A DNA stretch of 64,000 nt, taken from positions 441,568 through 505,567 of the forward strand of contig JAULTD010000001.1 in NCBI GenBank assembly GCA_038801785.1, in the 5' to 3' direction. Source of the stretch: Candidatus Methanomethylicaceae archaeon GD_Cm_T35_P0_bin.15 (GTDB lineage: Archaea > Thermoproteota > Methanomethylicia > Methanomethylicales > Methanomethylicaceae). A model generated the notes under the pieces. That model did no database searches. It worked only from the letters and a program-made list of their open reading frames with translations, and was not told the DNA's origin. Below are positions 26,742 through 46,298 of this stretch, piece after piece (the stretch's first letter is position 1; every line of letters begins with the position of its first letter). Made by a program: the position numbers and the translations under genes.

Positions 26742-27695
26742 TCAGGAGCCCGTTGTGTCTTTACTTTGGAACCACTTTACAGTCTCCTCCAGCCCTTCCC
26801 TGAGAGAGTATTCAGGGACGTAGCCGAGATCATTTTTCGCGCGTGTGATGTCCGCCACGGAGTGGAGCACATCGCCGGGGCGCGGCGGGGCGTACTCGAT
26901 GCCAGTGTTCCTGCCCGTTGCCGAGAAGACTTCGCGGGCAAGGTCGTTTATGGAGGTGCGGACCCCCGAGGCGATATTGTAGACGCCGGTCGCGCCAGAG
27001 GCGGCGGCGAGGATGTTGGCGCGGACGACGTCCCTGACGTAGACGAAATCGCGGGTCTGGGTGCCGTCGCCGTAGATTACGAGCTTCTCGCCGGAGAGGG
27101 CGCGGGTGATGAACTTCGGGATGACGGCGGCGTACTCCGATTGGGGATCCTGGCGCGGGCCGTAGACGTTGAAGTAGCGGAGGCAGACGGTGGGGAGCCC
27201 GTAGAGCTCGGTGAAGAGGCGGCAGTAGTGCTCCCCCGCGAGCTTGGTGAGGGCGTACGGGGAGAGGGGGCTGACGGGGAGGCTTTCAGAGAGAGGGAGG
27301 GTTTGGGCGTCGCCGTAAACCGCGCAGGAGGAAGCGAAGACGAACTTTTTGATATCACTGTCGCGGGCGGCTACGAGAAGGTTAAGGGTTCCGGTGATAC
27401 CCGCATCGTTGGTGCTGGCGGGATCGGATATTGAGCGGGGAACTGAGGGGATGGCGGCTTGGTGGAAGACGTAATCCACATCTTTCAGGATGCCGTTCAG
27501 GAAGGGGATATCGGCAAGGTTATTTTTTGCGAGTTTAACTTTATGAGCCTCAAGAAGGTCGGCGATATTGCGAAGGCTGCCAGTAGACAAATTATCGAGG
27601 ATAGTAACATCATTATGCGGAGATAACGCAATGCTCAAGCAAGAACCGATAAAGCCGGCTCCGCCGGTAATGAGAACCCTTTTGTCGCGCATCAT
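26742..27695 (-). CDS. NAD-dependent NDP-sugar epimerase/dehydratase (GalE/WbpP-like). Mosaic gene: the 5' ~270 nt are AT-richer than the rest
   Basis: 'VLITGGAGFIGS' Rossmann motif. Catalytic 'YALTK'. GC shifts at ~27420 inside the gene. Confidence 0.85.
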   Translation of the reverse strand: MMRDKRVLITGGAGFIGSCLSIALSPHNDVTILDNLSTGSLRNIADLLEAHKVKLAKNNLADIPFLNGILKDVDYVFHQAAIPSVPRSISDPASTNDAGITGTLNLLVAARDSDIKKFVFASSCAVYGDAQTLPLSESLPVSPLSPYALTKLAGEHYCRLFTELYGLPTVCLRYFNVYGPRQDPQSEYAAVIPKFITRALSGEKLVIYGDGTQTRDFVYVRDVVRANILAAASGATGVYNIASGVRTSINDLAREVFSATGRNTGIEYAPPRPGDVLHSVADITRAKNDLGYVPEYSLREGLEETVKWFQSKDTTGS

Positions 27696-27813
27696 GGGGC
27701 TATCATGTGATGTTTAATCCTATAAAACTATTAGAGAATCGCCGATCAGCGCCCCCAGTTTGGAACCTGAGCGCTCCTAGGAAACTTTAAACGCTCGCCA
27801 ATAAGGCAACGGC

Positions 27814-29277
27814 TCATCTGCTATACAGAACCTCGAGTATGTATTTTGCGTAAGGGTAAAGCTGATCCAACTGTTTCCGGGACAGGAAAGCAGAAGATAC
27901 CTCGGCCAGGTCGGACTTTGACAGCAGGTTTAGCCGAGCATAAGCAAACATAGATATAGCTAGAATAACTAGTGTTCCGATAATCCAATTAATATTTAGA
28001 AAAATCATCGCGAGCGCTACTGACGAGGGGATTACTGCGAAGAGGAGAGAGGAATTCCAATCGATAGCATAGCCTATACGGCGGGCCATGAAATATACTG
28101 CGAATAATGCAACGAACAGACCTGAAATGTAGGCGAGGGCAGCACCATTATTACCATAAAGGGCAACCAAGATAGGGTAGAGGGCAATACGCGGTACATT
28201 GGTTGAGAAACCCAGCAGAGTAACGTATCGATAATGACCATATGCATAGATGAGGGAGTTGAAGCCGTAAGAGATCGGGGCGACAAGACAGCCTATCATG
28301 AGGAGCTGGAGGGTAAAGGATGCTTCGACATAAGATGCCCCGAGAAGAGAGAGGGGGACATAAGGGAAGGCAATGACCACAGCAGCCAAGGGGGCAATAA
28401 TGACGGAAGTAAGGCGGATTGACCTAGATGTAGAGCGCTTCCTCCCGTCGCGCATACCGCTCAATATAGGAAACATGAGACCTAGAAGAGACAGAGGGAG
28501 GGTGTAGACTATTTGCGATATCTGGAAGGCTATATAGTATGTGCCAGCCTGCGTTGCACCGGCTAAACCATAAACGCCGATTACGCCGAGCTGTGTGCCA
28601 GCAGTCAATACGAGGGAGGGAACCCAGGAGGGCAAACCTTGCCTGATCGATTCTTTTGCGAGGTGAAGACTAGGTTTTGTGGCTGACACCGTTCTTCGTG
28701 AGGCTAAGAGAAGTATAACGTCCTGAACCATACCTGCGATAATGAATGCTAGCATTACGCCCATAAAGCCAGTTTCAGCATATAGGAGAAGAAGCCCAAG
28801 AGCCAAGCGTGCTAATGTGGCGAGAATGGTAGAAAGCGCGATTATGTGGGTCTTCAATGTAGCATTGTAAAGCGCATTGGCGACTGGTGGAATGGAACCG
28901 AGTAGGAAGAGTGCCGTAATGAAGGGAATTGTGAATTGTGTTAAACCTATGAGAGTGCCTATTACAGATATAAATAAAGCGGCGGAGCCACTTACGGCCA
29001 AACTAGTTATGAATGCGGACGCGAAAACGGCGCTTAACCCTTTTCGATCATTGGAACCATATGCCTGACCAAACATACGTGTGGCGCCAGAGGAGATACC
29101 TAAACTGGAGATACTGGTTATGAGTGAGGCCAAGGCTATAATGGCGGCAGCATCGCCCACTATTGACGGATGCACAAATTGGGATGCAAGCAGCCAGAAA
29201 AGGTAACCTACAAAACTACTGACGATCCCGGAAATGTAGAGCCAGAAGCTGCCCCGTATTACTCGGTTAAGAGACAT
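27814..29277 (-). CDS. Wzx-like oligosaccharide flippase (MOP superfamily)
   Basis: 487 aa with ~14 TM segments. Low GC. Its 3' 320 bp are repeated at 31816-32137. Confidence 0.6.
   Translation of the reverse strand: MSLNRVIRGSFWLYISGIVSSFVGYLFWLLASQFVHPSIVGDAAAIIALASLITSISSLGISSGATRMFGQAYGSNDRKGLSAVFASAFITSLAVSGSAALFISVIGTLIGLTQFTIPFITALFLLGSIPPVANALYNATLKTHIIALSTILATLARLALGLLLLYAETGFMGVMLAFIIAGMVQDVILLLASRRTVSATKPSLHLAKESIRQGLPSWVPSLVLTAGTQLGVIGVYGLAGATQAGTYYIAFQISQIVYTLPLSLLGLMFPILSGMRDGRKRSTSRSIRLTSVIIAPLAAVVIAFPYVPLSLLGASYVEASFTLQLLMIGCLVAPISYGFNSLIYAYGHYRYVTLLGFSTNVPRIALYPILVALYGNNGAALAYISGLFVALFAVYFMARRIGYAIDWNSSLLFAVIPSSVALAMIFLNINWIIGTLVILAISMFAYARLNLLSKSDLAEVSSAFLSRKQLDQLYPYAKYILEVLYSR
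27815..28137. repeat. Copy 1 of a ~320-bp direct repeat (the 3' end of the flippase gene); copy 2 at 31816-32137. The central ~100 bp are identical
   Basis: Side-by-side alignment of the two stretches: a perfect core 'tattttgcgtaagggtaaagctgatccaactgtttccgggacaggaaagcagaagatacctcggccaggtcggactttgacagcaggtttag', with ~75% identity in the flanks. Confidence 0.9.
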
Positions 29278-29831
29278 TTACAAACGCACAGGTGTGACCT
29301 ATTCATTTAAGGGTTAATAAGATTACCATATCTAGAAACAATCCCTCGCACAGCTTTGTCGCCCTATAAAAATAAAGGGCTTCAGATCGTTTTTCGGCGT
29401 AAAGCCTTTGACAAGAACATAAGCCACTAAAATAAGCGAAAATACAACCCGTCTTAGTAGTTACATCCGCTATCAATCCAGTACCATCGACGTTAATTTT
29501 CCGCCTTCGCGTTCTCATCGTTTGTTAGAGGATCACTTTCTGGCAAATGTAGAGGGATGAAGATGATGCCTTTTTCGGCTATCCAATAGGAGCTTTTGGG
29601 GTAGACATTACAGGTTAAAGACTAATTAGTCTTAACTTTTTCTTTAGAACAGAGGGTAAAATAAGCCATAGCCGATGTAAAGCATGCGGGATTTTTAGTT
29701 TATTACTTAATATATATGGCATAAGCGCTTCTGAAGGCATGACTGCAAGAGACTTTTGTACGCGCACTTCAAGAGTTTTATTACGTTTGTGTCGGGCTTT
29801 AGTATATGAAGGGAGTACGGATTTCATTATG

Positions 29832-30287
29832 TTAAATACTAACAGATAAGTCTATGTACTTAAAGACCGGCATATGACGTCGGGCGTTATATGTTGTGCT
29901 AAGATTTCTAAAGAGTATGTAATCTGCAGGCAGTTCACCCTTGAACTCAAGATCTATCTGATGCAGACCGTCATCGTTATGAATAATGTTTGAATAACCA
30001 AAATCAAAGGCGTACCCAGACAATATCGGGATGGCCAGCTCATCCCTACGCCCAGTATCAAATCTCCTGATGAGTTCCTCATAATATTTCTTTGCAAGTC
30101 TAACACTTTGTTCAAAATAGTCTTGTTGATATAAGATTTCGATTGCGCGGTAAGCGAGTAAATCGCCTTCTATCCACTTGGACTTAAGCACAGGCTCATG
30201 TTTAATTAAGAACTCTCCAACACGGTACTCAGCCTTATTGGCAAGTTTCGCTTCCGTTTTCTTCTCCACATGAAGCTCTGGTTCCAA
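29832..30287 (-). CDS. Hypothetical protein (low-GC island)
   Basis: 151-aa ORF. Codon usage is consistent with its low-GC neighbours. No recognisable motif. Confidence 0.4.
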   Translation of the reverse strand: MEPELHVEKKTEAKLANKAEYRVGEFLIKHEPVLKSKWIEGDLLAYRAIEILYQQDYFEQSVRLAKKYYEELIRRFDTGRRDELAIPILSGYAFDFGYSNIIHNDDGLHQIDLEFKGELPADYILFRNLSTTYNARRHMPVFKYIDLSVSI

Positions 30288-30328
30288 ATATAACGTCGTG
30301 ATAGAGTGATTACTTCGTTTACGCTGAT

Positions 30329-31358
30329 TTATGAGAAATGTTTAGCGACCCATTTAGGCTCGGCGATTGATGAGGAATTAGTTCCAGCGAGTATAAGAAA
30401 TGACTTTGCAAATTCCCTAAGTAGCCCGGCATGAGACAGAGTTTTAACAGCAAGAGCTTCATTAAATAAATACTTCCTAGTTAAATCTCCGGAGAACGGA
30501 GTAGAAATCCAGTTATGTAAATAGTAATTTTCACCTTCATCAACATCACTAAATAGAGTAGTAGCAAATCTGTAATCCGGGAAACAATAGTAATGTTGTA
30601 ATTTGGAAAAACCGGCTAATTTCAGTTTCAAGTCTAATTCCCTTTTGCTAAAAGTGATTATCCCGGGTTTACTTGGGGATCCTTCGATACCATTAAAGAA
30701 CTTCCCAGTGAGATCTTCAGTGTAGCCACACCAGTATTTAATGCCCAGCCTATCTTCAATAGCGAGAACAAGAATCCCGTCAGGCCTTAGCGCGGTTTTT
30801 GCGTGTTTCAATACCAATAAAGCAGATCTCTCGGGCTCTGCAATATCAACAATTTTAGGTGAATACTCCAATACGCCGACTAATACCACAAGATCATACT
30901 CGGGCTTAAAACAAATGCGCATAAAATCAGAGTTATAAATTGTAACATTCTGTAAATCTCTGCACCTTTCACGAGCGATTTTTGATCGGATAAAAGACCC
31001 TTCTACACCTACCACATTACGAAAGTTTTCACCCAAATATCGAGTGATGGCCCCACATCCAGAGCCTAATTCCAGAACATTTAGCGCTTTAGGTAAATCA
31101 AGAGCTTAGTATATTTGAGCGCCCCATGCCGAGGTGACATCGAGTCGGCCAATCGCAAGTTTTCCTTTCGAGCTCTTCCGAATTATCTCGCAAATCACTA
31201 GCATTTTTTAATATGGCATATATTTGATTTTCAGTAAATGCACCATCGGAATATGTGAAAGAACGTTTATCATCAGTTAGAACATAAATACCGCTCTCCC
31301 AATCATAGGTAAAATCGTCAAGGGCATAACTGCCGTTAGTTTTCACCGAAGACACCAC
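30329..31358 (-). pseudogene. Class I SAM-dependent methyltransferase split by a frameshift near 31098-31110 (N-terminal 86-aa ORF 31098-31358 plus C-terminal 235-aa ORF 30329-31036)
   Basis: SAM motif I 'VLELGSGCGAITRYLG' lies in-frame with the downstream ORF but directly after a stop codon and before any start codon. The upstream ORF ends 1 nt out of frame. Confidence 0.55.
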
Positions 31359-31764: not shown

Positions 31765-32266
31765 TTAAACCGTTACTCTCCCCTCGAAGGGCAGAAGGCG
31801 GATCAAACCACAATTCATCTGCCGTACAGAACCTCTATAATATATTTTGCGTAAGGGTAAAGCTGATCCAACTGTTTCCGGGACAGGAAAGCAGAAGATA
31901 CCTCGGCCAGGTCGGACTTTGACAGCAGGTTTAGTCGAGCATAAGCAAACAGAGACGGCCAGAATAACCAACGTTCCAATAATCCAATTAATGTGTAGAA
32001 ACACCATCATGAGCACTACTGATGAAGGGATTGCTGCAAGGATAAGGGAGGAGGCCCGACAGGCAGTATAGCCTATGCGGCGGATCATGAAGTATACCAC
32101 GAACAACGCAACGAATAGACCTGAGATGTAGGTGAGGTTGCGGATCCTCCCGGTGGAGAGGCCGTCAAGGACGGCGACCTCGTTGGAAAGGGAGAGCGCG
32201 CGGGCTAGGCAGGAGCCGATGAAGCCTGCCCCGCTGGTGAGGAGGATCCTTTTTGCTGCGTATCAT
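31765..32266 (-). pseudogene. Chimeric remnant: epimerase 5' fragment (32110-32266, frameshifted at an A5 run) fused to a flippase 3' fragment (31765-32106). Both are diverged duplicates of the genes at 26742-27695 and 27814-29277
   Basis: The translation 'MIRSKK(I)LLTSGAGFIGSCL..' matches 'MMRDKRVLITGGAGFIGSCL..'. '..VYFMIRRIGY..IPSSVVLMMVFLHINWIIGTLVILA' matches the flippase C-terminus. ~100 bp are identical at the nucleotide level. Confidence 0.7.
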
Positions 32267-32329
32267 AAGGTCACCTCAGACATTAATGGTGTAAAAGTAT
32301 TAAAAAGAACCTATGCTTGGATCTGAGCG

Positions 32330-32405
32330 GGGCAGAAAGCGAAGGGCGCTTGAGAACGGGATGGCGAATCGAAGGACGGGCTCAATATAATCCCCACCTA
32401 GTCAT
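32330..32405 (-). pseudogene. Remnant of the 5' end and upstream region of a DUF457 hydrolase gene (duplicate of 26560-26640)
   Basis: 'gaacgggatggcgaa.tcgaaggacgggctcaatataatcccc' matches 'gaacgggatggcgaagtggaggacgggctccatataatcccc' at 26585-26630. Confidence 0.55.
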
Positions 32406-32529
32406 TGCGGCGGTGGAGCCGATAAGCTGTGAGGTGGCAGGGCACCTTCAGTGGGGGCTACCCAAGATATTGAGTTGCTCCTTTTTAGTCTCAGGGCATC
32501 AGTGAGGATACGCAGTGTGCACGTCAACC

Positions 32530-33483
32530 TTATTTAATAATTTGTTTCCTAAATGCGCGTATTCTGCATATGGCAGCATATAAAAACCCAGCGAACCCGC
32601 TTGCATAAACTATAAACTCATCTAGGTTATCGAACTTATCGCCAGCATGAATTCTTTTCAGTTTGAGCGGATGAGTATCATGTGTATTAAACCCAAAATC
32701 GACAGTTAGACCAAAGTCATATCCCGCAGCCATACACAATTGAACCTCTCTATCAGAATAGTCGCCGTTTGGATATGCGATTGCGTTTATGATCAGACCA
32801 TACTCTTTTTCGAGTATGCGTTTCGAGGCAAATATTTCATCGTATGCTTCGTCAGTATTGCATTGCGTTAAGCAAGGATGAAATAAAGTATGAGACTGAA
32901 AGTTTACGTAGGGCAACATTTCGTAAATTTGCTTTTTTGACAAAGCGTGTGGAGTGTCATAGCCTTTTTCATTTTCGAACCCAATCTTCTTCAGGATTTG
33001 GAGTCGTTTATTATTTGAAACTTTTTTCAGTTGCTCAGTTGTAAGCGGCAGATATGCTTCGTTAGATTGTGCTTCTTTGAACCAAAAGTGTCTGTTAGTA
33101 TTTGCAATACCAGAACATAGGAATATTGTTATTGGAACACCATACTTTTTAAATATCGGAAGTAGATCGTAGTTGCTCTTATGCCCGTCATCGAAGGTGA
33201 TCACAAGTGATTTTTTGGGGAAGCGTTCTTTTCTTCTGTATAAATCGAAAAATTCGTTTAAGCTTATTATCTGGTAATTATTCACCAAGTATCTAAACGT
33301 TTTTTCTGCATTCTTAGGATCAATTTCATGAAAGAAGAGTATAGTAACTCTATTTTTTTGAAGGGTCTCCCTAAATATAAAAGGCAACCCCGAGAACCTA
33401 AGGCATAGATATATAAGGCGTCTGATCCGAATATTTTGCCTCGCATAAACCAGCAACTTGGTTAACACCTCTGAAATCGACAT
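32530..33483 (-). CDS. Polysaccharide deacetylase (NodB-homology, CE4 family)
   Basis: NodB motif 'VITFDDGHKSNYD'. Conserved His/Asp pattern ('HTLFHP'). Low GC (~35%). Confidence 0.8.
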   Translation of the reverse strand: MSISEVLTKLLVYARQNIRIRRLIYLCLRFSGLPFIFRETLQKNRVTILFFHEIDPKNAEKTFRYLVNNYQIISLNEFFDLYRRKERFPKKSLVITFDDGHKSNYDLLPIFKKYGVPITIFLCSGIANTNRHFWFKEAQSNEAYLPLTTEQLKKVSNNKRLQILKKIGFENEKGYDTPHALSKKQIYEMLPYVNFQSHTLFHPCLTQCNTDEAYDEIFASKRILEKEYGLIINAIAYPNGDYSDREVQLCMAAGYDFGLTVDFGFNTHDTHPLKLKRIHAGDKFDNLDEFIVYASGFAGFLYAAICRIRAFRKQIIK

Positions 33484-33504
33484 AGTTTGATCGCTAGTCG
33501 CGCT

Positions 33505-34593
33505 TCACCACACGTCTGACTGAAAAAGAGACCAACTCTCACTAAATCTCGTGTCAACTCCACCAACGAAATATGCACTGTCGTTGAAATTAGAAGAGAT
33601 GGGCTTGATTAATAGGCCAGGGAGTTTGCTTTTACCGACTAATTTCATCGCTTTTAATAATCGTACCATTCTATCGCCAGAATATTTAAAACCACTTTTC
33701 CGAAAGTTCAATAACTCCCCCTGATTACGAGTAAAGACAGGCACCAGTATACTGGGGACCAATACTTTTTCAGATATTCCTTTGATTAGACGTATAAAGT
33801 GGTCCGACTTTAAGTATGCATATTCCATCAATGAATAATATTTATTGCTAGTTTTTTGCAATGCAAGATAGCCAGTAGTTTTACCTCCTTCTCTACTATA
33901 TGCATAAACATGTTCGTAAGGACTCCCCCCGAATCGCCAAGTATAAAATTCTTTGTCTCTGATATTGCGAATCTTACTCTTTTCCGTGAATGATTGCATT
34001 AAACTATATATCTCACTAATTTTTAATTCATTTGTAATCTCAAACATTACATTGTTTCGTTCAGACCTGATTTTAGCATCTGAATCACTCTCATAAATAA
34101 GCTTTTTCAAGCCATTTACTGGATAAAAAGAGTACATGTATTCCCGTTCACCCACAGAAATGAAGCCACACTTTAGGTAACCAGCGGTAGATGCTTCATT
34201 TGACGAAAGGCTTAGTAAAAATCGAATATTCGAATTTTCACGCATATCTTCGAAAGCATAGTTAGTAAGGCTGGAAAAAAGTCCTTGCCGCCTAAAATCT
34301 GGATGAACGATTGTGTCAGCTGAAATTCCGACCAAGAATTCGTCACTATTGCAGGTAAGCTTCTGAATTACAAAAGAACGCTGAGCGATAATACGATCCC
34401 CATAGAGAACGAGATATCTAAACGGTCTTTTAGTGTAGGGGTTGCTTTCATAAATCCACTCAACTAACTTTTTCCTCTCATTGAAATTTTTATTTCGCCA
34501 TTGAAGGCCTAGAAATTCAACTAGTTGATCTTTTAAACTAGAATCGTACCTACAGATGCGGACTTTAGGCATATCTTGCATTCCCCTTAGCAA
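33505..34593 (-). CDS. GNAT-fold acyltransferase, two-lobed (FemAB/CelD-like) family
   Basis: 'HPDFRRQGLFSSL' GNAT motif A. 362 aa. Very low GC. Confidence 0.5.
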   Translation of the reverse strand: MLRGMQDMPKVRICRYDSSLKDQLVEFLGLQWRNKNFNERKKLVEWIYESNPYTKRPFRYLVLYGDRIIAQRSFVIQKLTCNSDEFLVGISADTIVHPDFRRQGLFSSLTNYAFEDMRENSNIRFLLSLSSNEASTAGYLKCGFISVGEREYMYSFYPVNGLKKLIYESDSDAKIRSERNNVMFEITNELKISEIYSLMQSFTEKSKIRNIRDKEFYTWRFGGSPYEHVYAYSREGGKTTGYLALQKTSNKYYSLMEYAYLKSDHFIRLIKGISEKVLVPSILVPVFTRNQGELLNFRKSGFKYSGDRMVRLLKAMKLVGKSKLPGLLIKPISSNFNDSAYFVGGVDTRFSESWSLFQSDVW

Positions 34594-34854
34594 GTCTTAA
34601 CCATCAAAGCATCAACAGATAAATAAAAGATCTAAATTGTTCTCCACCTATCTTTTGTGGTAAATCATTGATAGTTTTAGCCGAGACTTCATTTTACTCG
34701 ACTATGTTTTATGTCTTTGCATTTGTATAATCTCCCCGTTTTTTCAACAGGAGTTTTGTTACGCCAAGCCAGCCCTCGACTCTATACGATGCTGTAGAAA
34801 CATCAGATATGAGTTTATTAGGTGTTTTATGTTCGCAAGCTATGCTAGTCAAAT

Positions 34855-35949: not shown

Positions 35950-36255
35950 TTTTAATACTTTAATTAAGTTTTTTAAATATACGATATATCAAGATAAAGT
36001 TATCGTGGGTCTCCGGCATATATTGCATGTAATGAGGCGTTATGCAGAATAACCCTTCTTATGCAGCTCATAGTAGTAACACTAGACACGCGTACAGATT
36101 AGTTACAAATACAGGCACGAAAACGGAGGGTCTTTCTGCCAATAGAACGGCGCTCTCGACCCAATATCTATAAGATTAGAATTGCTAAACTAAAGAGATA
36201 GTTATAAAGGAGGGCATCATCTATAAATTTAGAGGCATAATTTAAATAAAAACAG

Positions 36256-38430: not shown

Positions 38431-38460
38431 GTTTGTAGATTAAATAAGTTTTCCCACCGT

Positions 38461-39642
38461 CTAACCATGTTCAACTATAACCGCTCGATACAGTTCTTCG
38501 ATCTCATTAAGAACGCTATTGAGAGAAAATTTAGAGCCCACCATGCTTCTTGAACGTTCCCCCATAATGCTACATTGTTCAGGATTACTTAGGAGATATG
38601 TCATTTGTGTACACAACTCGGAGACGCTACCATCTTTAAAAATTAACCCTGTTATGCCATCTTGTACAAGGTCTTGCATGGATTCTACATCTGACGCGAT
38701 AACAGGTCTAGAACAAGCATTAGACTCTAGCACCACCATAGGAAAAGCCTCATATCTGGAAGGCAACACTACAAACTCGGAATCAACGTATGCTTCGAGC
38801 TTTTCTCGACCATACAGAGGACCTGTCAACAATATAAAGCGATCCAACCCTAGGTAGTTGATTAAACCCTCGATTTCTGCACGATAGCCATCATCAGGAC
38901 CTGCAATCACAAGCCGAATATTTGTCAATCCTGTACGATTAATCAGTTGTGCGTAGGCCTTAATGAGAATATCAACACCTTTAATCCGATGAAGGCGGCC
39001 TATAAACAACACAATTCGTGCATCATTAGATAGACCTAATTTTCGCTTAAAGAAGTTCTTGGGAGGGAGTTCACCGTATGTCGAAAGATCGACGACATTA
39101 GGAATAATAGCTATTTTTTCTTTGGGCACCCCTATTTGCATATATTGCATTGCCTCAGAAGTTGTTAATGCAATACATCTCGAAGCCGATTTCATTATTC
39201 GATAACCGACTGAATAATCATAGATGGCTTTGAGCCATCCTTTCCCCATCATTCGTGGGAGCGATCCATGAGCCTGAAAGAGGAAGGGGATGCTATATTT
39301 CTTAGCGTAAAAAGCTATGAGATTCTGGAATGTCGGGTGTCCGTGCAAGTGAATCAAATCAAATCGCTCTGACCTGAAAGATGTGACCAACTCAGGGGTT
39401 ATGAAAAGATTCAAGTTTTTTACGAGCGCCATTGACAAATTACGCATGTACCGTACCTTCACTCCATCTATATTTTTTTTATTTTCAGGAATTCTAGTAA
39501 CGCGATCCTTGGCGTCAGAGGTAAAAACAGTTACATCATGCCCTCTTTGGCGTAATCCTTTAGAAATCAGATAGGCACTTGTCGCCACTCCTCCAAAGGA
39601 ATGAGCGGGAACAAAAAACGGTGCTACGTGAAGGATGCGCAT
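38461..39642 (-). CDS. Glycosyltransferase family 4
   Basis: 'EAFPMVVLESNACSRPVIASD' E-x7-E motif. GT-B N-terminal 'MRILHVAPFFVP'. Confidence 0.88.
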   Translation of the reverse strand: MRILHVAPFFVPAHSFGGVATSAYLISKGLRQRGHDVTVFTSDAKDRVTRIPENKKNIDGVKVRYMRNLSMALVKNLNLFITPELVTSFRSERFDLIHLHGHPTFQNLIAFYAKKYSIPFLFQAHGSLPRMMGKGWLKAIYDYSVGYRIMKSASRCIALTTSEAMQYMQIGVPKEKIAIIPNVVDLSTYGELPPKNFFKRKLGLSNDARIVLFIGRLHRIKGVDILIKAYAQLINRTGLTNIRLVIAGPDDGYRAEIEGLINYLGLDRFILLTGPLYGREKLEAYVDSEFVVLPSRYEAFPMVVLESNACSRPVIASDVESMQDLVQDGITGLIFKDGSVSELCTQMTYLLSNPEQCSIMGERSRSMVGSKFSLNSVLNEIEELYRAVIVEHG

Positions 39643-39689
39643 CCCTAGAACGATCTGACTCGATCGGCTCTAGTCATGACCTCGGCGCT

Positions 39690-39900
39690 AAACATCTACA
39701 CTAGTCCAGTAGTCCACATTCCATTGGGGCACACTGCCCACCACGGAGTAGGTTTCCTGCGGGGATGTGAAGGCATACTGAACGCTGACCCAAGAATCAG
39801 CAATAGTCGCATCGACTGAAGATTCGCTCGGTACTGCAGGGACGGCTCCAAGTGAGGCAATTACTGCAAGTATTAGTAAAAAAGAATACTCGCCTCAAAT
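39690..39900 (-). pseudogene. Decayed 5' fragment of a DUF1616-family gene (paralog of 45266-46294); start codon mutated ATG->ATT
   Basis: The translation '..LILAVIASLGAVPAVPSESSVDATIADSWVSVQYAFTSPQETYSVVGSVPQ' matches 'LALAVIASLGAVSAVQGAPADATIAGSWASVQDAFVSLQDAYAVAGSVPQ'. Nucleotide alignment confirms it. Confidence 0.65.
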
Positions 39901-39997
39901 TCAATCTACATTAGTAAGCGTACGTTTTTGAGCATAACCTTCAACAAAAAGATTTCTCAAGAAGGTCTTTTATCAATAGGGGCACCAAACTATAGTT

Positions 39998-41002
39998 TCA
40001 GGTTTTTAGGAGATTAACTAAAGAGCATTTTATCCAAGAAAGAGGTCTAATAGCCAAATGATCAAATAAGTAAGTGGGCAAATTTACGCCTGTACACAGC
40101 TTAGTTATTCTATCCATTTCATCTGCGTTCAGGATGATATTAGGCGCCTCAGCGTTTGCAGCAACCTGATCCTCTGTCAGTGCTGCGGGTATTGGGGTAA
40201 ACCCCTTGTTAATAATGTAGGCTAACGCTAGTTGAGCGATACTCACCCCTCTTTCCTCAGATAGATTGCCTAGAAACTCAAACAAGGGAGTCGCTTTTTT
40301 AAGAAGAGATTGACGATTTACAAAATTAAAGGCCCTCGCCCTATCTTTTGCTAAGCGTTTGGCGTCATATTTGCCAGTCAATATCTCTCCTGCCAAGGGG
40401 CTGTAGCTAATTATTTCAATAGAATGTTTCTTGCAGTAGGGAATTATCTGTTGCTCTGCTCGTCTTGATAGAAGATTATATTCTATCTCATTAGCTATAA
40501 TTTCGCAGGAGGTTAAGTTCTCCTGAGCCCGTTCTAAGAGATAGCTACAGAAATTACTCACTCCAATATATCTAATCTTACCTTTTTTAACTAAGTATTC
40601 TAGAGTGCGAAAGGTTTCCTGGAATCTTATGAGGGGATTGGGATAATGTATAAGATATAAATCAATGTAATTTATACCTAATCGCCTCAGGCTACCATCA
40701 ACGGCTTTCACAATGTTATGCGATCTTAAATTCCATGGAGCGACCTTTGATACAATAACATAATCTTCCCTTTTGTAAGGTTTTAAGGCGTTGCCAAGCA
40801 ATTCTTCTGCTTTACCATTGCCATATGTTTCAGCAGTATCAAAGAAGTTGATGCCCTCATCCATACAACGACGAACAACTCGAACAATGGTATCATCAGA
40901 ATAGCGAATGCCGTGACCCCAAGCGCTGCAACCAAACTGACCTGATCCTTGACCCACTAAAGAGGTTTTTAAATCACTCTTACCAAATTTGCGATATTTC
41001 AT
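39998..41002 (-). CDS. Aldo/keto reductase family oxidoreductase
   Basis: 'FFDTAETYGNGKAEELLG' and 'IRYIGVSNF' are AKR signatures. Confidence 0.88.
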   Translation of the reverse strand: MKYRKFGKSDLKTSLVGQGSGQFGCSAWGHGIRYSDDTIVRVVRRCMDEGINFFDTAETYGNGKAEELLGNALKPYKREDYVIVSKVAPWNLRSHNIVKAVDGSLRRLGINYIDLYLIHYPNPLIRFQETFRTLEYLVKKGKIRYIGVSNFCSYLLERAQENLTSCEIIANEIEYNLLSRRAEQQIIPYCKKHSIEIISYSPLAGEILTGKYDAKRLAKDRARAFNFVNRQSLLKKATPLFEFLGNLSEERGVSIAQLALAYIINKGFTPIPAALTEDQVAANAEAPNIILNADEMDRITKLCTGVNLPTYLFDHLAIRPLSWIKCSLVNLLKT

Positions 41003-41050
41003 GGTTATACGATTGTAGACGCGATATTACTTAAGCACGAAATGATCGTT

Positions 41051-42325
41051 TTACCGTCTTTGTATAGGAGTTCTTGAAGCTTTAGAGCGACTGTGACGCA
41101 GATTGTCTAATTCTTTTTCAAACATTTCAACGAGGACGCTCCAATCATTACTTTCGATAGCCCTGCGAGCTTTCTCGCCCTCTTGTGTAATTAATTTGCC
41201 TTTAAGAGCGTATGCCTTTTCCACGACTTCTTCTGGATGATCAATATAGACAATACCGCTGCTCTCCCCAAATTCTTTTTGTATGCCAGGCAGCCTTGTG
41301 GCAATCACGGGCTTACTAGCGGCCATATACTCATACATTTTAATAGGAACAATATTTTGCATTACTACTTCATCAAGATATGCAGGTAAAAGACAAATAT
41401 CTGATGCAGACAGATAATCAAGAATCAAGTCAAACGGTTGCTTTCCAACAAGGATTAAGCGGTCTGCAAGATCATAAATATCACGAATTTTACAGAGATC
41501 AAAATAAGCTTCCCCCTCTCCGACGATCAGCATTTTCAAATGGCTTTTTGAGCGTTTAGTGTTAGCTAGACTTAAGGCAACTTCTTTTAATCCAGAAAAG
41601 CTATAGAGCCACCCCATAAAAAAGAGGACGATGTCGGCATCATCGATCTTGTATTTTACTCTTATTTCAGCTCGTTTTTCTGGATTTGGTCTATAGCGGC
41701 TCAGATCCACACCGCCAGGGATAATGACGACTTTAGCTGGATCTGCGCCCATCAATCTTACATAATCTACAAGACCTTTGTTTATTACAATAATTCTGTC
41801 CGACCTTTTTAGCACTGTACTCTCAATCGCTTTAGCGAGCGGTTGCCCTATTTTCTGGGGCACCAATGTATGCAAATGGTCTATCAGATAGTAAACGAAC
41901 GGGATACTCTTTTTCTTACACATATGTGACGCCAAATATGCATTAAGTATACCAAACGAGACGACTACATCAGGTCTAAATTCGTTAATCTGTTTTTCAA
42001 GCTCCAAGCGATGACTAAGTACCAGTGAGATGTACTCCAATAGGGGTAGTTGCACTATTGCAGGTCTGATCAAATCGATCTTTCCTTGTGGGACTACTTT
42101 CCAGCATCCATTGAATACCTCGCGTTTCTTTAAAAAGCGGTATTTTTTGTTTCTCCATAGTATGTCATAATCAATAACACGGATGTAATGGCCTCTCTCA
42201 GATAATCTCTCCATAAGGTGATGTTGTTGATGGGGGCCTCTCTCGATCCAATTCGATTCTTGCAGAACGAGTATGCGCATCTCAGAATTCGCAGGAGCGT
42301 TGGATCTCTGTCCAGTTATTAGCAA
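41051..42325 (-). CDS. Glycosyltransferase family 4
   Basis: GT-B fold. 'YEYMAASKPVIATRLPG' C-terminal motif. 424 aa. Confidence 0.75.
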   Translation of the reverse strand: MLITGQRSNAPANSEMRILVLQESNWIERGPHQQHHLMERLSERGHYIRVIDYDILWRNKKYRFLKKREVFNGCWKVVPQGKIDLIRPAIVQLPLLEYISLVLSHRLELEKQINEFRPDVVVSFGILNAYLASHMCKKKSIPFVYYLIDHLHTLVPQKIGQPLAKAIESTVLKRSDRIIVINKGLVDYVRLMGADPAKVVIIPGGVDLSRYRPNPEKRAEIRVKYKIDDADIVLFFMGWLYSFSGLKEVALSLANTKRSKSHLKMLIVGEGEAYFDLCKIRDIYDLADRLILVGKQPFDLILDYLSASDICLLPAYLDEVVMQNIVPIKMYEYMAASKPVIATRLPGIQKEFGESSGIVYIDHPEEVVEKAYALKGKLITQEGEKARRAIESNDWSVLVEMFEKELDNLRHSRSKASRTPIQRR

Positions 42326-43292
42326 ACCAGCGGTAAGTCTTGTTCAAGCCCACTTTAAACTCAGTTGTAGGATTATAATGCAATATCTTCTTTGCTTTCT
42401 CTATAGAGGCTAGCAACCTGAACTTCTGATCCCAGTCTCTTCTCTCCCTATATATAATTCCAGCATGATTTCCAGTAATCTCGTTTACCCAAGCAGCTAG
42501 ATCGTTTATCTTTATTTCGCGATTTGTGCCGAGATTGATTGCTTCACCAATAGCATCCTCGTAATAGGCCATTGCCAACAAGCCGTTTACGATATCACCC
42601 ACGTAAGTGAAATCACGAGTTTCTTCTCCAGTCCCTGTAATAGGCAAAGGTTGCCGATTCATGGCCCAATAGAAAAAGTTCGGGATTACATTACGATATT
42701 TGCCTGGAACCTCTCCCGGACCATAAGAGTTGAAGAATCTAGCGTTCACTATAGGCAGATCGTACAAGTTATAGTAACAATTAGTGTAGAGCTCACCTAA
42801 CATCTTAGTGACTTGATATGGCGTATACAATTTCATGGAAACATCGTGCTCTTCGAAGGGCATCTTTGAATCCGAACCGTAAATACCGCAACCGGAGGAA
42901 GAGTATATGAAACGCTCCACTCCAACAAGATGTGAGTATTCGAGCATCCTCAAAATCCCCATTCCGTTGACCATTAAATCTGTCTCAGGATTATCGACCG
43001 AATTCTGATTGGCAAAATGGGCCGCCAGATGGTATACGATTTCAGGTTTTCTTTTGAACGCCCGTCTGAGGTACTCTTCGTCCAATACACTGCCTTTAAT
43101 AAACCGTATCTTTTGTCCACGGGGAACATTCCACTCGTATGAGGAAGAAAGGTCATCCAAAATGATGACTTCTTTTGTATCCAAGGTGTTGAGTGTTCTG
43201 ACCAAATTTCCTCCTATAGCACCTGCTCCGCCTGTTACCAGAACAGTCTTTCCTTTAAAGGAGTTTTTTACTTCTTCCATGTTAATCACCAA
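42282..43292 (-). CDS. NAD-dependent NDP-sugar epimerase/dehydratase (extended SDR)
   Basis: 'VLVTGGAGAIGGNLV'. Catalytic 'YQVTK'. Confidence 0.85.
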   Translation of the reverse strand: MVINMEEVKNSFKGKTVLVTGGAGAIGGNLVRTLNTLDTKEVIILDDLSSSYEWNVPRGQKIRFIKGSVLDEEYLRRAFKRKPEIVYHLAAHFANQNSVDNPETDLMVNGMGILRMLEYSHLVGVERFIYSSSGCGIYGSDSKMPFEEHDVSMKLYTPYQVTKMLGELYTNCYYNLYDLPIVNARFFNSYGPGEVPGKYRNVIPNFFYWAMNRQPLPITGTGEETRDFTYVGDIVNGLLAMAYYEDAIGEAINLGTNREIKINDLAAWVNEITGNHAGIIYRERRDWDQKFRLLASIEKAKKILHYNPTTEFKVGLNKTYRWFANNWTEIQRSCEF

Positions 43293-44226
43293 TCCTGTAG
43301 TACCATCTCATCCAATCTACAGTTCTTCGAATGCCTTCCTCAGGAGGCACAGTAGGATTGTGTTTCAAATCACGTATTGCTTTCGAACAGTCAATGGTCT
43401 TTACCTTCGTAGTAAAGGGCTCACTCTCATTATACGAAACAAGCGAGTCATCCCTGCCAACAATCTTTAGCACTATGTCAGAATAGTCCTCAATACTCCG
43501 CTCCCATTCAGGTTTGCCTGCCACATTGTAGACTTCACCGGGTATGAAATTATTAATGATGTTTGCAAAAGTCATGCAGGAATCTTCGACATAATCTATA
43601 ATTCTCTTATGACCTTTGAAGACAACATACGGCTTGTTAAATAACGCGTGGTATATGAACTTGGGTATAAACCCCCTATAAGGAGTGTAATGCTCGCCAG
43701 GCCCATAGCAGTTCACAGGACGAACTCTTACAATCTCGGTTCCAAACATGCTGGCAGAGTTCATGCACATCAACTCGCCCGCCCATTTGGTAATGGCATA
43801 ATCATTCATCTGATAAGTTTCCTTGATTGGCTTGCACTCCATTATATCTTCGGTCATTACATCGTTATAATCGCCGTAAACCTCTGCTGAAGAAAAGAAG
43901 ATCATCCTAAACCTGAGTTTTTCCTGCAATCTAAGCATATTCTTTGTACCAATAACGTTGGTCTCCCAGAGATTTTCATAATAATCTTCGCCATTCCATC
44001 GACCGTACTCGGCTGCCAAGTGATAGACGTAATCAAACCGGTCTTTTTCAAAGACTTTTTCAATTTGTCGAAAATTACGTACATCTGCGCGTATGTAGTT
44101 ATCGCGATCATTATTGAAAAGATCGAGTGCGATAACACTATGACCGCGCTTTCTTAACTCATTTACTAAATTTGTACCAATAAAGCCTGCTCCACCGGTA
44201 ACGAGTATCCGTTGAGTATCCATCAT
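43282..44226 (-). CDS. NAD-dependent NDP-sugar epimerase/dehydratase (extended SDR)
   Basis: 'ILVTGGAGFIGTNLV'. Catalytic 'YAITK'. Overlaps the downstream epimerase by 11 nt. Confidence 0.85.
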   Translation of the reverse strand: MMDTQRILVTGGAGFIGTNLVNELRKRGHSVIALDLFNNDRDNYIRADVRNFRQIEKVFEKDRFDYVYHLAAEYGRWNGEDYYENLWETNVIGTKNMLRLQEKLRFRMIFFSSAEVYGDYNDVMTEDIMECKPIKETYQMNDYAITKWAGELMCMNSASMFGTEIVRVRPVNCYGPGEHYTPYRGFIPKFIYHALFNKPYVVFKGHKRIIDYVEDSCMTFANIINNFIPGEVYNVAGKPEWERSIEDYSDIVLKIVGRDDSLVSYNESEPFTTKVKTIDCSKAIRDLKHNPTVPPEEGIRRTVDWMRWYYRIGD

Positions 44227-44236
44227 ACGAACCTCC

Positions 44237-45214
44237 TTAACCTTTATTTTCCTTGTTGTTCTTGATACTGTATAATATAAGAGAGGTCATCGCCAGAAAC
44301 ATGCCCCCAATTGTCACACCTAAACAGACTATCGCCAAAGGTATACTGAAATACCGCGTCTGATTGAAGATTAGCAGTAAATAGCCTCCAAGTATGAGGC
44401 CTGCGGAAAACAAGGAGATCCCGGGGACGCCTAGGACTAACAAAGGACGCCGATGAACGGTCAGCTTCGCGATCGTATCGATAAGCTCGAGTCCATGTCT
44501 TAAAGGGCTCTTTTTCGAGGTTTGTGCCAGCCCATCATAAAGTACGGTTACAGGCACTTCCTTAATCTTCAGATTGTGCTCCTTAGCTATAGCCAGCTGT
44601 TCGGACTCAGTGCCGTAGCCCTCCACTTCACAGGACAGCATCGCCTCAAGGGCCCTCTTGGAATAGGCGCGGTAGCCGCTCTGGGTATCCTTAACAGTAC
44701 CTCCCCCGCTTAACGCATTGATTATGCGCAGCCCAAACCTGCGGTAGAGGGGCGCATCGGTCCAAGCGCCGTCAACGTAGCGAGAGCCCAGCGCGATATC
44801 GGCCTCGCCGTTCAGTACGGGCTCAATCAATAGCGGGATCTCATTCGGATCGTGCTGGCCGTCAGAGTCCAGCGTCACGGTCACGTCGGCCCCTATGTTC
44901 AAGGCGTGCTGGAACAGGTGCTTCAGGGCTACGCCTTTCCCCTGGTTCTTCTTGCTCGATATCACGTAGGCTTTCAGGGCCGAGGCTACCTCGCTGGTCA
45001 TATCTTCAGAGCCATCATCGTAGACCAGCACCTCGTCGACGTACTTCTGGGCTTTGATTATGACGCTGGGGAGAGTCCTGTCCTCGTTGTAGGCGGGTAT
45101 GCACGCAACGATCAGCTTGTGCTCGCTTACTGGAAGGGTGCGCTCCAGCATATCGCCCGTAACTCCCCGGCTACAAGTAACGCTTTTTGCCCTTACGTGC
45201 TCTTTACTTATCAT
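44237..45214 (-). CDS. GT2 dolichyl-phosphate sugar synthase-like glycosyltransferase (Dpm1/AglJ-like) with C-terminal TM helices. Mosaic GC: high at the 5' end, low at the 3' end
   Basis: 'IPAYNEDRTL', 'DDGSEDMT' and 'LDSDGQHDP' (DXD). Two C-terminal TM segments. Confidence 0.85.
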   Translation of the reverse strand: MISKEHVRAKSVTCSRGVTGDMLERTLPVSEHKLIVACIPAYNEDRTLPSVIIKAQKYVDEVLVYDDGSEDMTSEVASALKAYVISSKKNQGKGVALKHLFQHALNIGADVTVTLDSDGQHDPNEIPLLIEPVLNGEADIALGSRYVDGAWTDAPLYRRFGLRIINALSGGGTVKDTQSGYRAYSKRALEAMLSCEVEGYGTESEQLAIAKEHNLKIKEVPVTVLYDGLAQTSKKSPLRHGLELIDTIAKLTVHRRPLLVLGVPGISLFSAGLILGGYLLLIFNQTRYFSIPLAIVCLGVTIGGMFLAMTSLILYSIKNNKENKG

Positions 45215-46294: not shown

Positions 46295-46298
46295 CTCA

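Follow-up and report, generated by a model that had tools for sequence, protein, structure and literature searches.

A probable replacement-type surface-glycan island with legible recombination scars in a Methanomethylicia-like archaeon

A low-GC block of glycan genes between host-like flanks

The window analyzed here (the whole 64,000-nucleotide stretch of DNA from Candidatus Methanomethylicaceae archaeon GD_Cm_T35_P0_bin.15) raises the question of how a 17- to 18-kb block of glycan genes, whose GC is 0.36-0.49 from ~27.45 kb to ~44.55 kb, down from ~0.64, came to lie among genes of host-like composition. The host is best described as a high-GC, Methanomethylicia/Verstraetearchaeota-like archaeon; its EF-1alpha is archaeal (83% identical to Methanomethylicaceae) and its RpoB is unsplit. 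An initial annotation had placed a low-GC island at ~27420-44500, and GC, GC3 and tetranucleotide profiles bear this out. GC3 was not uniform, being 0.388 ± 0.048 (maximum 0.48) in 11 island genes and 0.854 ± 0.048 (minimum 0.77) in 26 flanking genes, without overlap between the two (Mann-Whitney P = 2 × 10−6, 11 vs 26 genes), and tetranucleotide correlation to the flanks was about +0.9 outside the island and −0.4 to −0.57 within it. GC steps had also been proposed inside both end ORFs (epimerase and GT2), where within-ORF GC3 changepoints were found, and gene calls matched the full list of annotated genes: an SDR epimerase, Wzx-like flippase, deacetylase, GNAT, three GT4s, DUF2206 membrane protein, AKR, two SDRs and GT2. 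The genes are co-directional, as annotated; since all lie on the minus strand, the island starts with GT2 and ends with the epimerase, the reverse of the order originally given. Throughout, left denotes the GT2/DUF1616 side (high coordinates) and right the epimerase/ydjM side (low coordinates). The locus frame is MoxR-DUF58-DUF1616-GT2 ... (epimerase)-ydjM, with the following features:

45266..46294, minus strand: DUF1616 secreted or membrane protein, sequon-rich; conserved left flank
44237..45214, minus strand: GT2 polyprenyl/dolichyl-phosphate sugar synthase, AglJ/DPMS-like; first gene, left anchor
43282-44226, minus strand: SDR; left module
42282-43292, minus strand: SDR; left module
41051-42325, minus strand: GT4; left module
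39998-41002, minus strand: AKR; left module
38461-39642, minus strand: GT4; central module
36256-38430, minus strand: DUF2206 polytopic membrane protein; central module
34855-35949, minus strand: GT4; central module
33505-34593, minus strand: GNAT; central module
32530-33483, minus strand: polysaccharide deacetylase; central module
27814..29277, minus strand: Wzx-type flippase (Polysacc_synt), GC 0.48; PF01943 at 39.9 bits, cut-off 28.2
26742..27695, minus strand: SDR sugar-nucleotide epimerase, best NCBIfam match TviC-like; last island gene
26593..26669, minus strand: block A, made up of the ydjM start and the 44 nt before it; on the right, the boundary of divergence from the sister haplotype (see below) is the upstream edge of this block
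26014..26625, minus strand: ydjM-like membrane protein gene (Pfam YdjM), GC3 0.96; conserved right flank

By annotation, the island appears to encode a lipid-linked surface-glycan pathway, with SDRs and an AKR for sugar-nucleotide modification, GT2, GT4s, a deacetylase, GNAT, Wzx and the DUF2206 protein. GT2 had AglJ as its best NCBIfam match (128.9 bits, under the curated cut-off of 325) and matched the Pyrococcus furiosus Dol-P-Man synthase in PDB (5MLZ, E = 1 × 10−14); its true start is probably M22, because the database entry of the protein has 304 aa. GC was about 0.40-0.42 in the left module (39998..44226) and 0.36-0.42 in the central module (32530..39642), whose proteins fall into 90%-identity clusters that contain this genome alone. 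The DUF2206 protein (724 aa, about 13-15 transmembrane segments by a crude hydropathy count) had no PDB or NCBIfam match. STT3/AglB was not found among window ORFs scanned with Pfam or NCBIfam, a scan that covered all but a few of the larger, mainly plus-strand ORFs; an AglB gene could be located elsewhere in the genome. Proteins next to the island are rich in sequons: one of 696 aa contains 16 N-X-S/T sequons vs ~5 expected.

A different cassette at the same site in a sister haplotype

Comparison of the locus with related DNA recovered a single alternative haplotype, from two other metagenomes (contigs L002 and L005, which represent one haplotype because they overlap over 2,701 nt at 100% identity). 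Its flanks are near-identical to those of the window (99.05% over 8.1 kb on the left; 99.7% over 10.7 kb on the right, from 26669 downstream), with SNP density of ~1% over the 1.5-2 kb nearest the cassette on either side vs 0.1-0.4% farther out. Between the same two genes, the sister haplotype carries a different glycan cassette (~13.9 kb vs 17.8 kb in the window), also of low GC (0.30-0.55), comprising ATP-grasp, deacetylase, PHP, three GT4s, an EpsG-like protein (a weak match, below gathering score), an opposite-strand GT2, Wzx, epimerase and UDP-Glc dehydrogenase. Only the flippase (85.7% nucleotide identity) and the epimerase (65% amino acid identity) are recognizably common to both cassettes. 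Low-GC gene content between GT2 and ydjM differs among strains of one species. The initial annotation had favored replacement of a cassette over simple insertion, and the sister cassette, the junctions inside genes and the lack of integrase, tRNA or att at the island ends all support this. The region is very probably a replacement-type flexible genomic island for a predicted lipid-linked surface glycan, comparable to an O-antigen or S-layer island.

Junctions at the two ends of the island

Exchange involves recombination in the conserved frame, and on the left the current junction is found near the 3′ end of GT2. As the annotation had it, the break falls inside the gene: divergence from the sister haplotype begins at ~44460, where within a few bases 100% identity gives way to ~77% (318 identical bases are followed by 46 mismatches in 44459-44264). 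The GT2 proteins of the two haplotypes are identical over codons 1-251 except for T114A, with few synonymous differences in the DNA, while downstream of ~44460 differences affect 43 of the last 75 codons. Codon changes in this part number 27 synonymous and 23 non-synonymous. The catalytic domain is common to both haplotypes, and the last ~75 codons, encoding transmembrane helices, are the variable part. By composition, the changepoint lies at codon 207 (44593; GC3 0.72 then 0.52, permutation P ~0.009).

The right junction falls within the epimerase by composition and at the block upstream of ydjM by comparison with the sister haplotype. The epimerase is a mosaic of a low-GC 5′ third (GC3 0.40-0.53 over codons 1-60) and a host-like 3′ part (0.9-1.0 over codons 150-270), with the step spanning ~27284-27500 and the best single changepoint at codon 137 (27284; GC3 0.58 then 0.86, 0 of 2,000 permutations as extreme). 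It is 65% identical in amino acids to the sister epimerase, with no closer match among 5.8 billion proteins. Of the junction first proposed at ~27420, the GC3 step stood and was joined by a ghost 5′ end of the same gene (see below), but divergence from the sister continues past this point to 26669, 44 nt upstream of ydjM, where it ends abruptly. Composition and the ghost fragment point to an intragenic crossover in the epimerase. Block A has a second, diverged copy at 32354-32434 that starts at the same motif, AGCTTATC, which has no other occurrence in the window, and the ydjM-upstream boundary falls on the identical nucleotide in three contexts.

Ghost fragments and serial import

The stretch at 29.3-32.5 kb is not ordinary coding DNA; it contains the pseudogene of a methyltransferase, disrupted by frameshifts, together with three ghost fragments of genes, and a fourth ghost separates the central and left modules:

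39712..39882, minus strand: ghost DUF1616 5′ end, codons 8-63, degenerate start; 63% amino acid and 73% nucleotide identity to native DUF1616
32345..32434, minus strand: block A′, ghost ydjM promoter-proximal region plus codons 1-14; 82% nucleotide identity to 26593-26668
32134..32266, minus strand: ghost epimerase 5′ end, ATG to codon 44, with a 1-nt frameshift; joined directly to the ghost flippase 3′ end
31815..32137, minus strand: ghost flippase 3′ end, codons 381-487, frameshifted; direct repeat of 27814-28138
29630..31346, minus strand: class I methyltransferase pseudogene, ~590 aa, with at least three frameshifts

Homologues of the methyltransferase have 550-600 aa and are colinear with the pseudogene in four segments, which switch back and forth between frames −3 and −1. 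The two flippase 3′ ends are 94% identical in their final 141 nt and 77% identical in the 187 nt before that. GC3 of the DUF1616 ghost is 0.47 vs 0.84 in native DUF1616. The ghost epimerase, 4.5 kb upstream of the live gene and 65% identical to it in amino acids (E = 7 × 10−12), has a GC3 of 0.88, whereas the corresponding codons of the live gene have 0.47. Since the fragment keeps this value, a host-composition epimerase must once have been interrupted, and its displaced 5′ end survives as the ghost. It is joined, irrespective of frame, to the flippase codon-381 region, and it is downstream of that point that the live epimerase changes composition. The join may, tentatively, include a CCTC(G)CC microhomology if the ancestral sequence is reconstructed correctly. 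The sister haplotype has a ydjM ghost of its own (codons 13-62), located between flippase and epimerase.

The ghosts, together with the methyltransferase pseudogene, show that at least three or four imports make up the island, which is thus a patchwork. Replacement, as the initial annotation proposed, stood, but import of a single cassette did not, as the modules are divided by ghost fragments. Several imports appear to have had one homologous and one illegitimate junction each, and because several junctions look illegitimate, one clean double crossover does not describe the process. Such imports would have been one-ended: DNA would have crossed over homologously on the ydjM/epimerase side and been joined illegitimately, by a microhomology-type event, at its other end, and each event would have stranded a 5′ fragment of the resident gene upstream. 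The latest legible event may have brought in ~4.7 kb (32136 to ~27450) made up of the flippase 3′ ghost, the methyltransferase, the flippase and the low-GC 5′ part of the epimerase, crossing over inside the resident host-composition epimerase. Judging from the known biology of such islands, the selective driver could be cell-surface diversification, for example against viruses.

It is possible, if somewhat doubtful, that the ghost stack can be read further, as an event log in which serial one-ended recombination with lower-GC donors of the same class is the main way that glycan clusters of this uncultivated archaeal lineage arise and are renewed. This reading counts the ydjM 5′, epimerase 5′, flippase 3′ and DUF1616 5′ ghosts plus the independent ydjM ghost of the sister, gives each event a homologous anchor in ydjM or the epimerase and an illegitimate distal join, and has donors share the GT2...YdjM frame. 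If true, GT2 and YdjM would together offer glycan cassettes a conserved docking frame throughout Methanomethylicia. In one relative (L090), YdjM and this type of GT2 form a single fused ORF of 528 aa.

Distant relatives and the source of the low GC

The upstream frame (DUF1616-DUF7982-DUF8044-...-MoxR-DUF58-DUF1616-GT2) is common to the window, the sister haplotype and the relatives L086/L091 and L093, and the ydjM side is common to the window and the sister haplotype. In the distant relative L086/L091, the gene order of the left module is also found (SDRs 78-79%, GT4 55% and AKR 55% amino acid identity), with a low-GC centre between conserved ends. On this evidence, the order GT2-SDR-SDR-GT4-AKR-GT4 was ancestrally present in the wider lineage. 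Given that part of the gene order is ancestral, the foreign DNA would most likely have come from lower-GC relatives with the same locus architecture. No donor was found (the epimerase was at most 65% identical to any of 5.8 billion proteins, and the 90% clusters of cassette proteins held this genome only), so direction and source of transfer are inferred from composition alone.

This shared composition is also what lends some weight to the strongest alternative, namely that the low GC is a vertically inherited local AT bias, mutational or selective, with the junctions as mere edge gradients and no recent transfer. The low-GC centre occupies the same locus in three lineages (window, sister haplotype and L086/L091), the last of which keeps the left-end gene order, and the fall in GT2 GC3 starts at ~44593, within sequence identical in both haplotypes. 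In part, the low GC may have characterized the gene pool of this locus for a long time, and need not all mark a recent foreign origin. However, a local bias does not account for largely non-homologous gene content between haplotypes with 99.0-99.7% identical flanks, nor for the collapse of identity within a few bases at 44460. The GC3 of the ghost epimerase marks a host-composition gene that was interrupted, and the DUF1616 and ydjM ghosts are diverged orthologous copies of intermediate GC rather than local duplicates. We consider AT bias improbable; as sole explanation, it is largely refuted by the sister-haplotype comparison.

Mobility and assembly integrity

Delivery of the 17-kb cargo to an attachment site by a self-mobilizing element (integrative element, provirus or transposon) is less probable still, to the point of being very unlikely. 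Some parts of the island do lie between direct repeats (two ydjM 5′ blocks at a distance of 5.76 kb and two flippase 3′ ends at 4.0 kb), and the ydjM-upstream boundary recurs at one nucleotide. Yet these repeats are nested fragments of different genes (ydjM, epimerase, flippase and DUF1616) rather than terminal att sites, the boundary motif is absent elsewhere in the window, and its recurrence is more simply explained as the edge of a conserved ydjM promoter region. No integrase, transposase or tRNA gene was found in or beside the island, where no unassigned ORF space is big enough for one, and there was neither an att site at the island ends nor a repeated core site at the module borders. Moreover, a functionally equivalent cassette fills the locus in the sister strain and in relatives.

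Finally, although the source is a MAG-type contig and short-read contigs break at the flippase repeat inside the island, it is very unlikely that assembly or binning joined the DNA of two organisms. Both compositional junctions are spanned, without a mismatch, by Logan contigs that were assembled independently from SRR25293830 (54963..37855 and 27871..16014; 100% identity). A real repeat of 325 nt accounts for the position of the breaks, which fall at its two copies (one contig ends in the live copy; the other, judging by its length, is expected to end in the ghost copy). In addition, the sister haplotype from two unrelated metagenomes, with its identical 2.7-kb overlap, has a low-GC cassette on the same high-GC flanks, and the L086/L091 locus carries the same architecture on one 79-kb contig.

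Comparison with known systems

The island is of a known kind in a little-studied lineage, and its recombination scars are unusually legible. The O-antigen locus of Escherichia coli (galF-gnd) and the cps locus of Streptococcus pneumoniae (dexB-aliA) are low-GC clusters between conserved flanks in which flank recombination switches the serotype, and O-antigen and capsule loci often retain pseudogene remnants of earlier cassettes. The locus described here is like them in setting a Wzx flippase, sugar-nucleotide genes and glycosyltransferases, all of low GC, between conserved flanks. It differs in that family matches in the window cassette identified no initiating phosphoglycosyl transferase (WbaP/WecA type) and no clear Wzy, in that its lipid carrier enzyme resembles dolichyl-phosphate synthases, and in that the frame genes (DUF1616, DUF58/MoxR and YdjM) are archaeal. 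In homology-facilitated illegitimate recombination, known from naturally transformable bacteria such as Acinetobacter and pneumococcus, one homologous crossover and one microhomology join add DNA beside the anchor. The sequence scars at our locus (the stranded epimerase 5′ end, the composition switch in the live gene and the tentative microhomology) are consistent with this process.

In replacement islands, sets of surface-glycan genes are swapped at a fixed locus between conserved genes (Lopez-Perez, Martin-Cuadrado and Rodriguez-Valera 2014, PMC4033161), and substitutions peak in the boundary genes and are mostly synonymous (PMC4033161). Like those islands, ours occupies a fixed syntenic locus with equivalent but different gene sets in ~99% identical strains, has atypical low-GC composition and no mobility genes, and points to homologous recombination; substitution density likewise jumps in the boundary gene and stays raised in the adjoining flank. 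Unlike in those islands, the boundary peak comprises 27 synonymous and 23 non-synonymous changes, coinciding with the GT2 transmembrane anchor, and the host is an uncultivated Methanomethylicia-like archaeon. Interior ghosts pointing to one-ended or illegitimate joins are absent from that description.

Variation in surface-glycan and glycoprotein genes among close archaeal strains has been ascribed to recombination and tied to virus pressure (2015, PMC4535781; PMC5867893), including variation in the S-layer glycosylation (agl) genes of Haloferax (Shalev et al. 2018, PMC5867893). Our locus shares with these cases the variation in glycan genes between close strains and, putatively, the AglJ-like Dol-P glycosyltransferases. 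Unlike the halobacterial loci, it belongs to Thermoproteota/Methanomethylicia, has no S-layer gene or AglB inside the island, and lacks IS and viral genes, in contrast to Haloquadratum walsbyi, in which mobile elements play a part; its GC contrast (GC3 0.39 vs 0.85) is far larger than in the halobacterial cases.

Composition and gene content

The window has a GC content of ~0.64, but this falls to 0.36 to 0.49 from ~27.45 to ~44.55 kb, within a region (24.2 to 54.6 kb) in which the minus strand carries every gene. Gene annotation agreed with the content given for this low-GC block (the island) in the initial annotation: a flippase, a deacetylase, a GNAT protein, three GT4s, a large membrane protein, an AKR and two epimerases between a further epimerase and a GT2. 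The island was sharply distinct from its flanks in GC3 (0.388 ± 0.048 for 11 island genes versus 0.854 ± 0.048 for 26 flanking genes; ranges disjoint; Mann-Whitney p = 2e-6) and in tetranucleotide composition, whose correlation with the flanks went from about +0.9 outside to between -0.4 and -0.57 in the island. The FYMINK residue fraction of island proteins was 0.32 versus 0.22. The GC steps proposed inside both terminal ORFs were borne out by GC3 changepoints. In the epimerase gene (26742-27695), GC3 was 0.40 to 0.53 over codons 1 to 60, ~0.7 over codons 61 to 120 and 0.9 to 1.0 over codons 150 to 270, with the best single changepoint at codon 137 (27284; 0/2000 permutations as extreme); in GT2 (44237-45214), it was 0.72 before and 0.52 after a changepoint at codon 207 (44593; p ~0.009).

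A separate GC dip (0.51 to 0.57) lies at 54500-57500, upstream of the conserved genes that frame the cassette (MoxR-DUF58-DUF1616-GT2 on one side, ydjM on the other). It holds at least six copies of an 18-nt tandem repeat (54899-55042) and a GT4-like ORF (55765-56508) that looks truncated. The dip adjoins a second Wzx-like flippase (656 aa, 57439-59409) and could represent another variable region for surface glycans.

A sister strain with another cassette

Two contigs (L002, JGI 3300001095; L005, Ga0067045, 223 kb) came from an exact-protein look-up of MoxR and from scanning metagenomes with YdjM; they share a 2701-nt overlap that is 100% identical and therefore represent one haplotype. This sister haplotype matches window 52335..44257 at 99.05% identity and window 26669..16018 at 99.7%, and between the same flanks it carries ~13.9 kb of other genes, likewise low in GC (0.30 to 0.55). 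By annotation, these encode an ATP-grasp protein, a deacetylase/DUF3473 protein, a PHP protein, three GT4s, an EpsG-like membrane protein, a GT2 on the opposite strand, a UDP-glucose-dehydrogenase family enzyme, and a Wzx flippase and an SDR epimerase (85.7% nucleotide and 65% amino acid identity, respectively, to their counterparts in the window). Replacement of a glycan cassette, the explanation first put forward for the low-GC block, is thus supported by a near-identical strain that holds a different low-GC cassette at the same place.

On the GT2 side, the two haplotypes showed few mismatches down to 44777, zero from 44777 to 44459 and 46 from 44459 to 44264, and the alignment stopped past 44257. 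The GT2 alleles each have 325 codons (27 synonymous and 23 nonsynonymous codon differences over the whole gene); their proteins are equal over codons 1 to 251 but for T114A, and the last 75 codons include 43 that differ. The divergent part coincides exactly with the transmembrane-helix region (residues ~256 to 317). At 44779-44797, 320 nt from the main breakpoint, five synonymous differences follow in a row within 19 nt of otherwise identical surroundings, which looks like a short gene-conversion patch. The database entry for GT2 has 304 aa (window range in question, 45152-45214), and the true start is probably Met22, not the ATG at 45214; the breakpoint analysis is unaffected. The right boundary was sharp and lay 44 nt upstream of the ydjM start codon, at 26669, and the epimerase diverged over its full length. 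Of the two intragenic junctions originally proposed, the left one does lie inside GT2, but the right one, measured against the sister, falls at 26669, with the whole epimerase divergent and not only the part beyond ~27420. SNP density was ~1% in the nearest 1.5 to 2 kb of each flank and 0.1 to 0.4% farther out, resembling what has been described for flexible genomic islands of the replacement type (PMC4033161).

Scars of successive recombination

Because the whole epimerase gene diverges from the sister allele, its compositional step at ~27.3 to 27.5 kb could not be checked against a parent. A search of 5.8 billion proteins returned no homologue closer than that allele (65%), and with matches of ≤65% a phylogeny of the 5' versus 3' halves would be uninformative. 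Support for an intragenic junction came from the island itself, where a composite ghost (leftover gene fragments) includes an epimerase 5' end of host composition. It comprises, in transcription order:

Within 32434..31815 (minus strand): ydjM upstream block and codons 1-14, 82% nucleotide identity
After this block in 32434..31815 (minus strand): ~90 nt with a TATA-like element
Following the ~90 nt (minus strand): epimerase 5' end, from the start codon through codon 44, disrupted by a 1-nt frameshift
Joined directly to the epimerase fragment (minus strand): flippase codons 381-487 and stop codon, frameshifted

GC3 of the ghost epimerase is host-like (0.88 versus 0.47 in the same codons of the live epimerase). 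On the simplest reading, the ancestral state would have been an epimerase of host composition at this site. A low-GC segment of ~4.7 kb, comprising the flippase-3' ghost, methyltransferase, flippase and epimerase 5' part, would then have entered, its right end by homologous crossover within the epimerase and its left end by an illegitimate join at epimerase codon 44 that stranded the old 5' end. Judging from the inferred ancestral sequence, CCTC(G)CC microhomology is possible at this join.

Further scars were found in both haplotypes. The methyltransferase between the ghost and live flippases is a pseudogene: homologues of 550 to 600 aa are colinear with 31346..29630 in four pieces and two alternating frames. 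A degenerate, diverged DUF1616 5' fragment (39712-39882) lies between the AKR and the next GT4 (63% amino acid identity to the native copy; GC3 of 0.47 versus 0.84). The sister has its own ydjM ghost between flippase and epimerase (L005 7221-7370; codons 13-62; 80% amino acid identity, 92% nucleotide identity over 131 nt), complementary in extent to that of the window (upstream block and codons 1-14). Given these ghosts and the pseudogene, the island is a patchwork of the following pieces:

44460-39998 (minus strand): M1; GT2 tail, two SDRs, GT4, AKR
39882-32345 (minus strand): M2; GT4, DUF2206, GT4, GNAT, deacetylase; bracketed by DUF1616' and ydjM' ghosts
Between M2 and M4 (minus strand): old-epimerase remnant
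32136 to ~27450 (minus strand): M4
Last piece (minus strand): host-like epimerase 3' part

The proposal of recombination-mediated cassette replacement stands, with the number and nature of events refined to a patchwork in which some joins look illegitimate. Ghosts of ydjM recur toward the ydjM-proximal side in both haplotypes, which suggests repeated one-ended events anchored there.

A second insertion scar lies outside the island, where a frameshifted ghost (19974-20079; 81 to 84% identity) duplicates the final ~105 nt of a membrane-protein gene (24262-24762). Bracketed by the copies are ~4.2 kb (19974-24384) with a gene for a polytopic membrane protein of 458 aa, a PIN (VapC-like) gene plus a small partner ORF upstream of it (21778-22408), and low-GC ORFs that matched no Pfam family (22647-24085); this scar is common to both haplotypes, and no integrase was seen. 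Directly downstream of the ghost, a low-GC patch (18100-19950; 0.47 to 0.53) with only short ORFs lacking family matches is likewise common to the sister haplotype (~99.7% identity).

That the block is a mobile integrative island is unlikely, since no integrase, tRNA, att site or recurrent core motif was found for it: the only copies of a candidate site-specific core were two ydjM-upstream copies, and an Rfam scan placed no RNA family within the island. Elsewhere in the window, Rfam matched a 134-nt tRNA at 15038-15171 (minus strand; 52.6 bits), which presumably has an intron; ARAGORN reported no tRNA in the window. A scan with bacterial-type promoter and terminator models, which are not applicable to archaea, gave fewer matches than in shuffles.

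The locus in related lineages

GT2 homologues of 59 to 64% identity occur in other metagenomes behind the same upstream frame (DUF1616-DUF7982-DUF8044-large sequon-rich protein-DUF4350-MoxR-DUF58-DUF1616-GT2). In one more distant relative (L086/L091; 79-kb contig), GT2 is followed by SDR-SDR-GT4-AKR-GT4 and then by other GTs, methyltransferases, an epimerase and a UDP-Glc dehydrogenase, with a GC of 0.33 to 0.41 in this centre versus ~0.55 in its own flanks. Its two SDRs are 78 to 79% identical to those of the window (frame proteins, 38 to 76%). The shared frame and gene order imply that the locus and part of its order are old. In another relative (L090, 2059-3645), an N-terminal YdjM domain is fused to a GT2 (52% identical to the window's) in one 528-aa ORF, which directly follows MoxR-DUF58 and precedes a UDP-GlcNAc 2-epimerase; the two cassette-framing genes are therefore probably functionally linked. 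The GT2 homologue of highest identity (66%; P0250/L088) sits in a nonsyntenic rhamnose-pathway context and was left out of the locus comparison.

Low GC persists in the gene pool of this locus in three lineages, as might be expected of a purely vertical, locally AT-biased locus, and therefore low GC alone neither dates nor sources the transfer; the sister haplotype and the ghosts nonetheless contradict such a purely vertical history. Most likely, lower-GC relatives that have this architecture supplied the window's low-GC versions. No donor was found: 90%-identity clusters of cassette proteins (6/10 queried were present in the collection) hold only this genome.

Assembly integrity and host

Misassembly as the source of the low-GC block is contradicted by two Logan contigs, independently assembled from SRR25293830, that equal the window at 100% over 54963..37855 and 27871..16014 and span the GT2 and epimerase junctions, respectively. 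One stops at 27871, inside a 325-nt repeat (live copy); for the other, a length of 23,059 nt and the inclusion of the deacetylase gene put the expected end near 31905, within the second copy. Exact-protein look-up with the flippase gave no match, nor was a Logan contig found for 27871-31905; independent assembly support thus covers 54963..37855 and 27871..16014, not this repeat-bounded interior. The window is part of a 547-kb NCBI contig and encodes archaeal EF-1alpha, RpoA'/A'' and RpoB in one piece (unsplit). Host taxonomy was taken from EF-1alpha, whose nearest named relatives are Candidatus Methanomethylicaceae/Verstraetearchaeota MAGs (83%), and not from MoxR, for which a scan of the genome collection gave, among the matches listed, identities of ≤60% (Dehalococcoidales and others) that are uninformative for synteny or taxonomy.

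Predicted function

GT2 resembles the P. furiosus Dol-P-Man synthase (5MLZ, E = 1e-14) and, below cut-off, the AglJ model; the terminal epimerase is TviC-like with a score under cut-off, and Wzx is present in the island by annotation. Together with the sequon-rich neighbouring proteins described below, these similarities suggest that the putative product is a lipid-linked surface glycan, which may be either N-linked or polymeric. AglB, Wzy and an initiating phosphoglycosyl transferase were absent from the window ORFs scanned, and for DUF2206, the large (724-aa) membrane protein of the island, a PDB sequence search and a literature search gave no informative match or paper. A 696-aa frame protein (49665-51755, minus strand; no Pfam match) has 16 N-X-S/T sequons (2.3 per 100 aa versus 0.73 expected), and DUF1616 (45266-46294, minus strand) likewise has about three times expectation; both are candidate glycosylated envelope proteins beside the island.

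Significance and comparison with known islands

Knowledge of Methanomethylicia (Verstraetearchaeota), which are methyl-reducing methanogen relatives, comes almost wholly from MAGs. Here, strains that are ~99% identical, whether coexisting or geographically separate, differ in their glycan-coat genes, and short-read assemblies break exactly at the island, accounting for the fragmented state of such MAGs. The scars are unusually direct sequence evidence of cassette splicing, among them the surviving half of a gene that a probable intragenic crossover displaced; the unusual trait of the island is this legible history, in which nested ghosts speak for one-ended recombination. In PCR or long-read work, the GT2 and ydjM borders can serve as anchors to recover the diversity of glycan types and to link virus susceptibility with glycan type in digesters. 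A literature search returned no report of strain-level surface variation or of such an island in Methanomethylicia, and the "replacement island" pattern now reaches this archaeal lineage. The island is a replacement-type flexible glycan island, of a kind already described for Haloquadratum, for Haloferax and for the O-antigen, capsule and flagellar-glycosylation loci of bacteria (PMC4033161, PMC4535781, PMC5867893); by analogy, its architecture appears comparable to that of O-antigen and capsule loci, which likewise have conserved ends and a variable low-GC centre.
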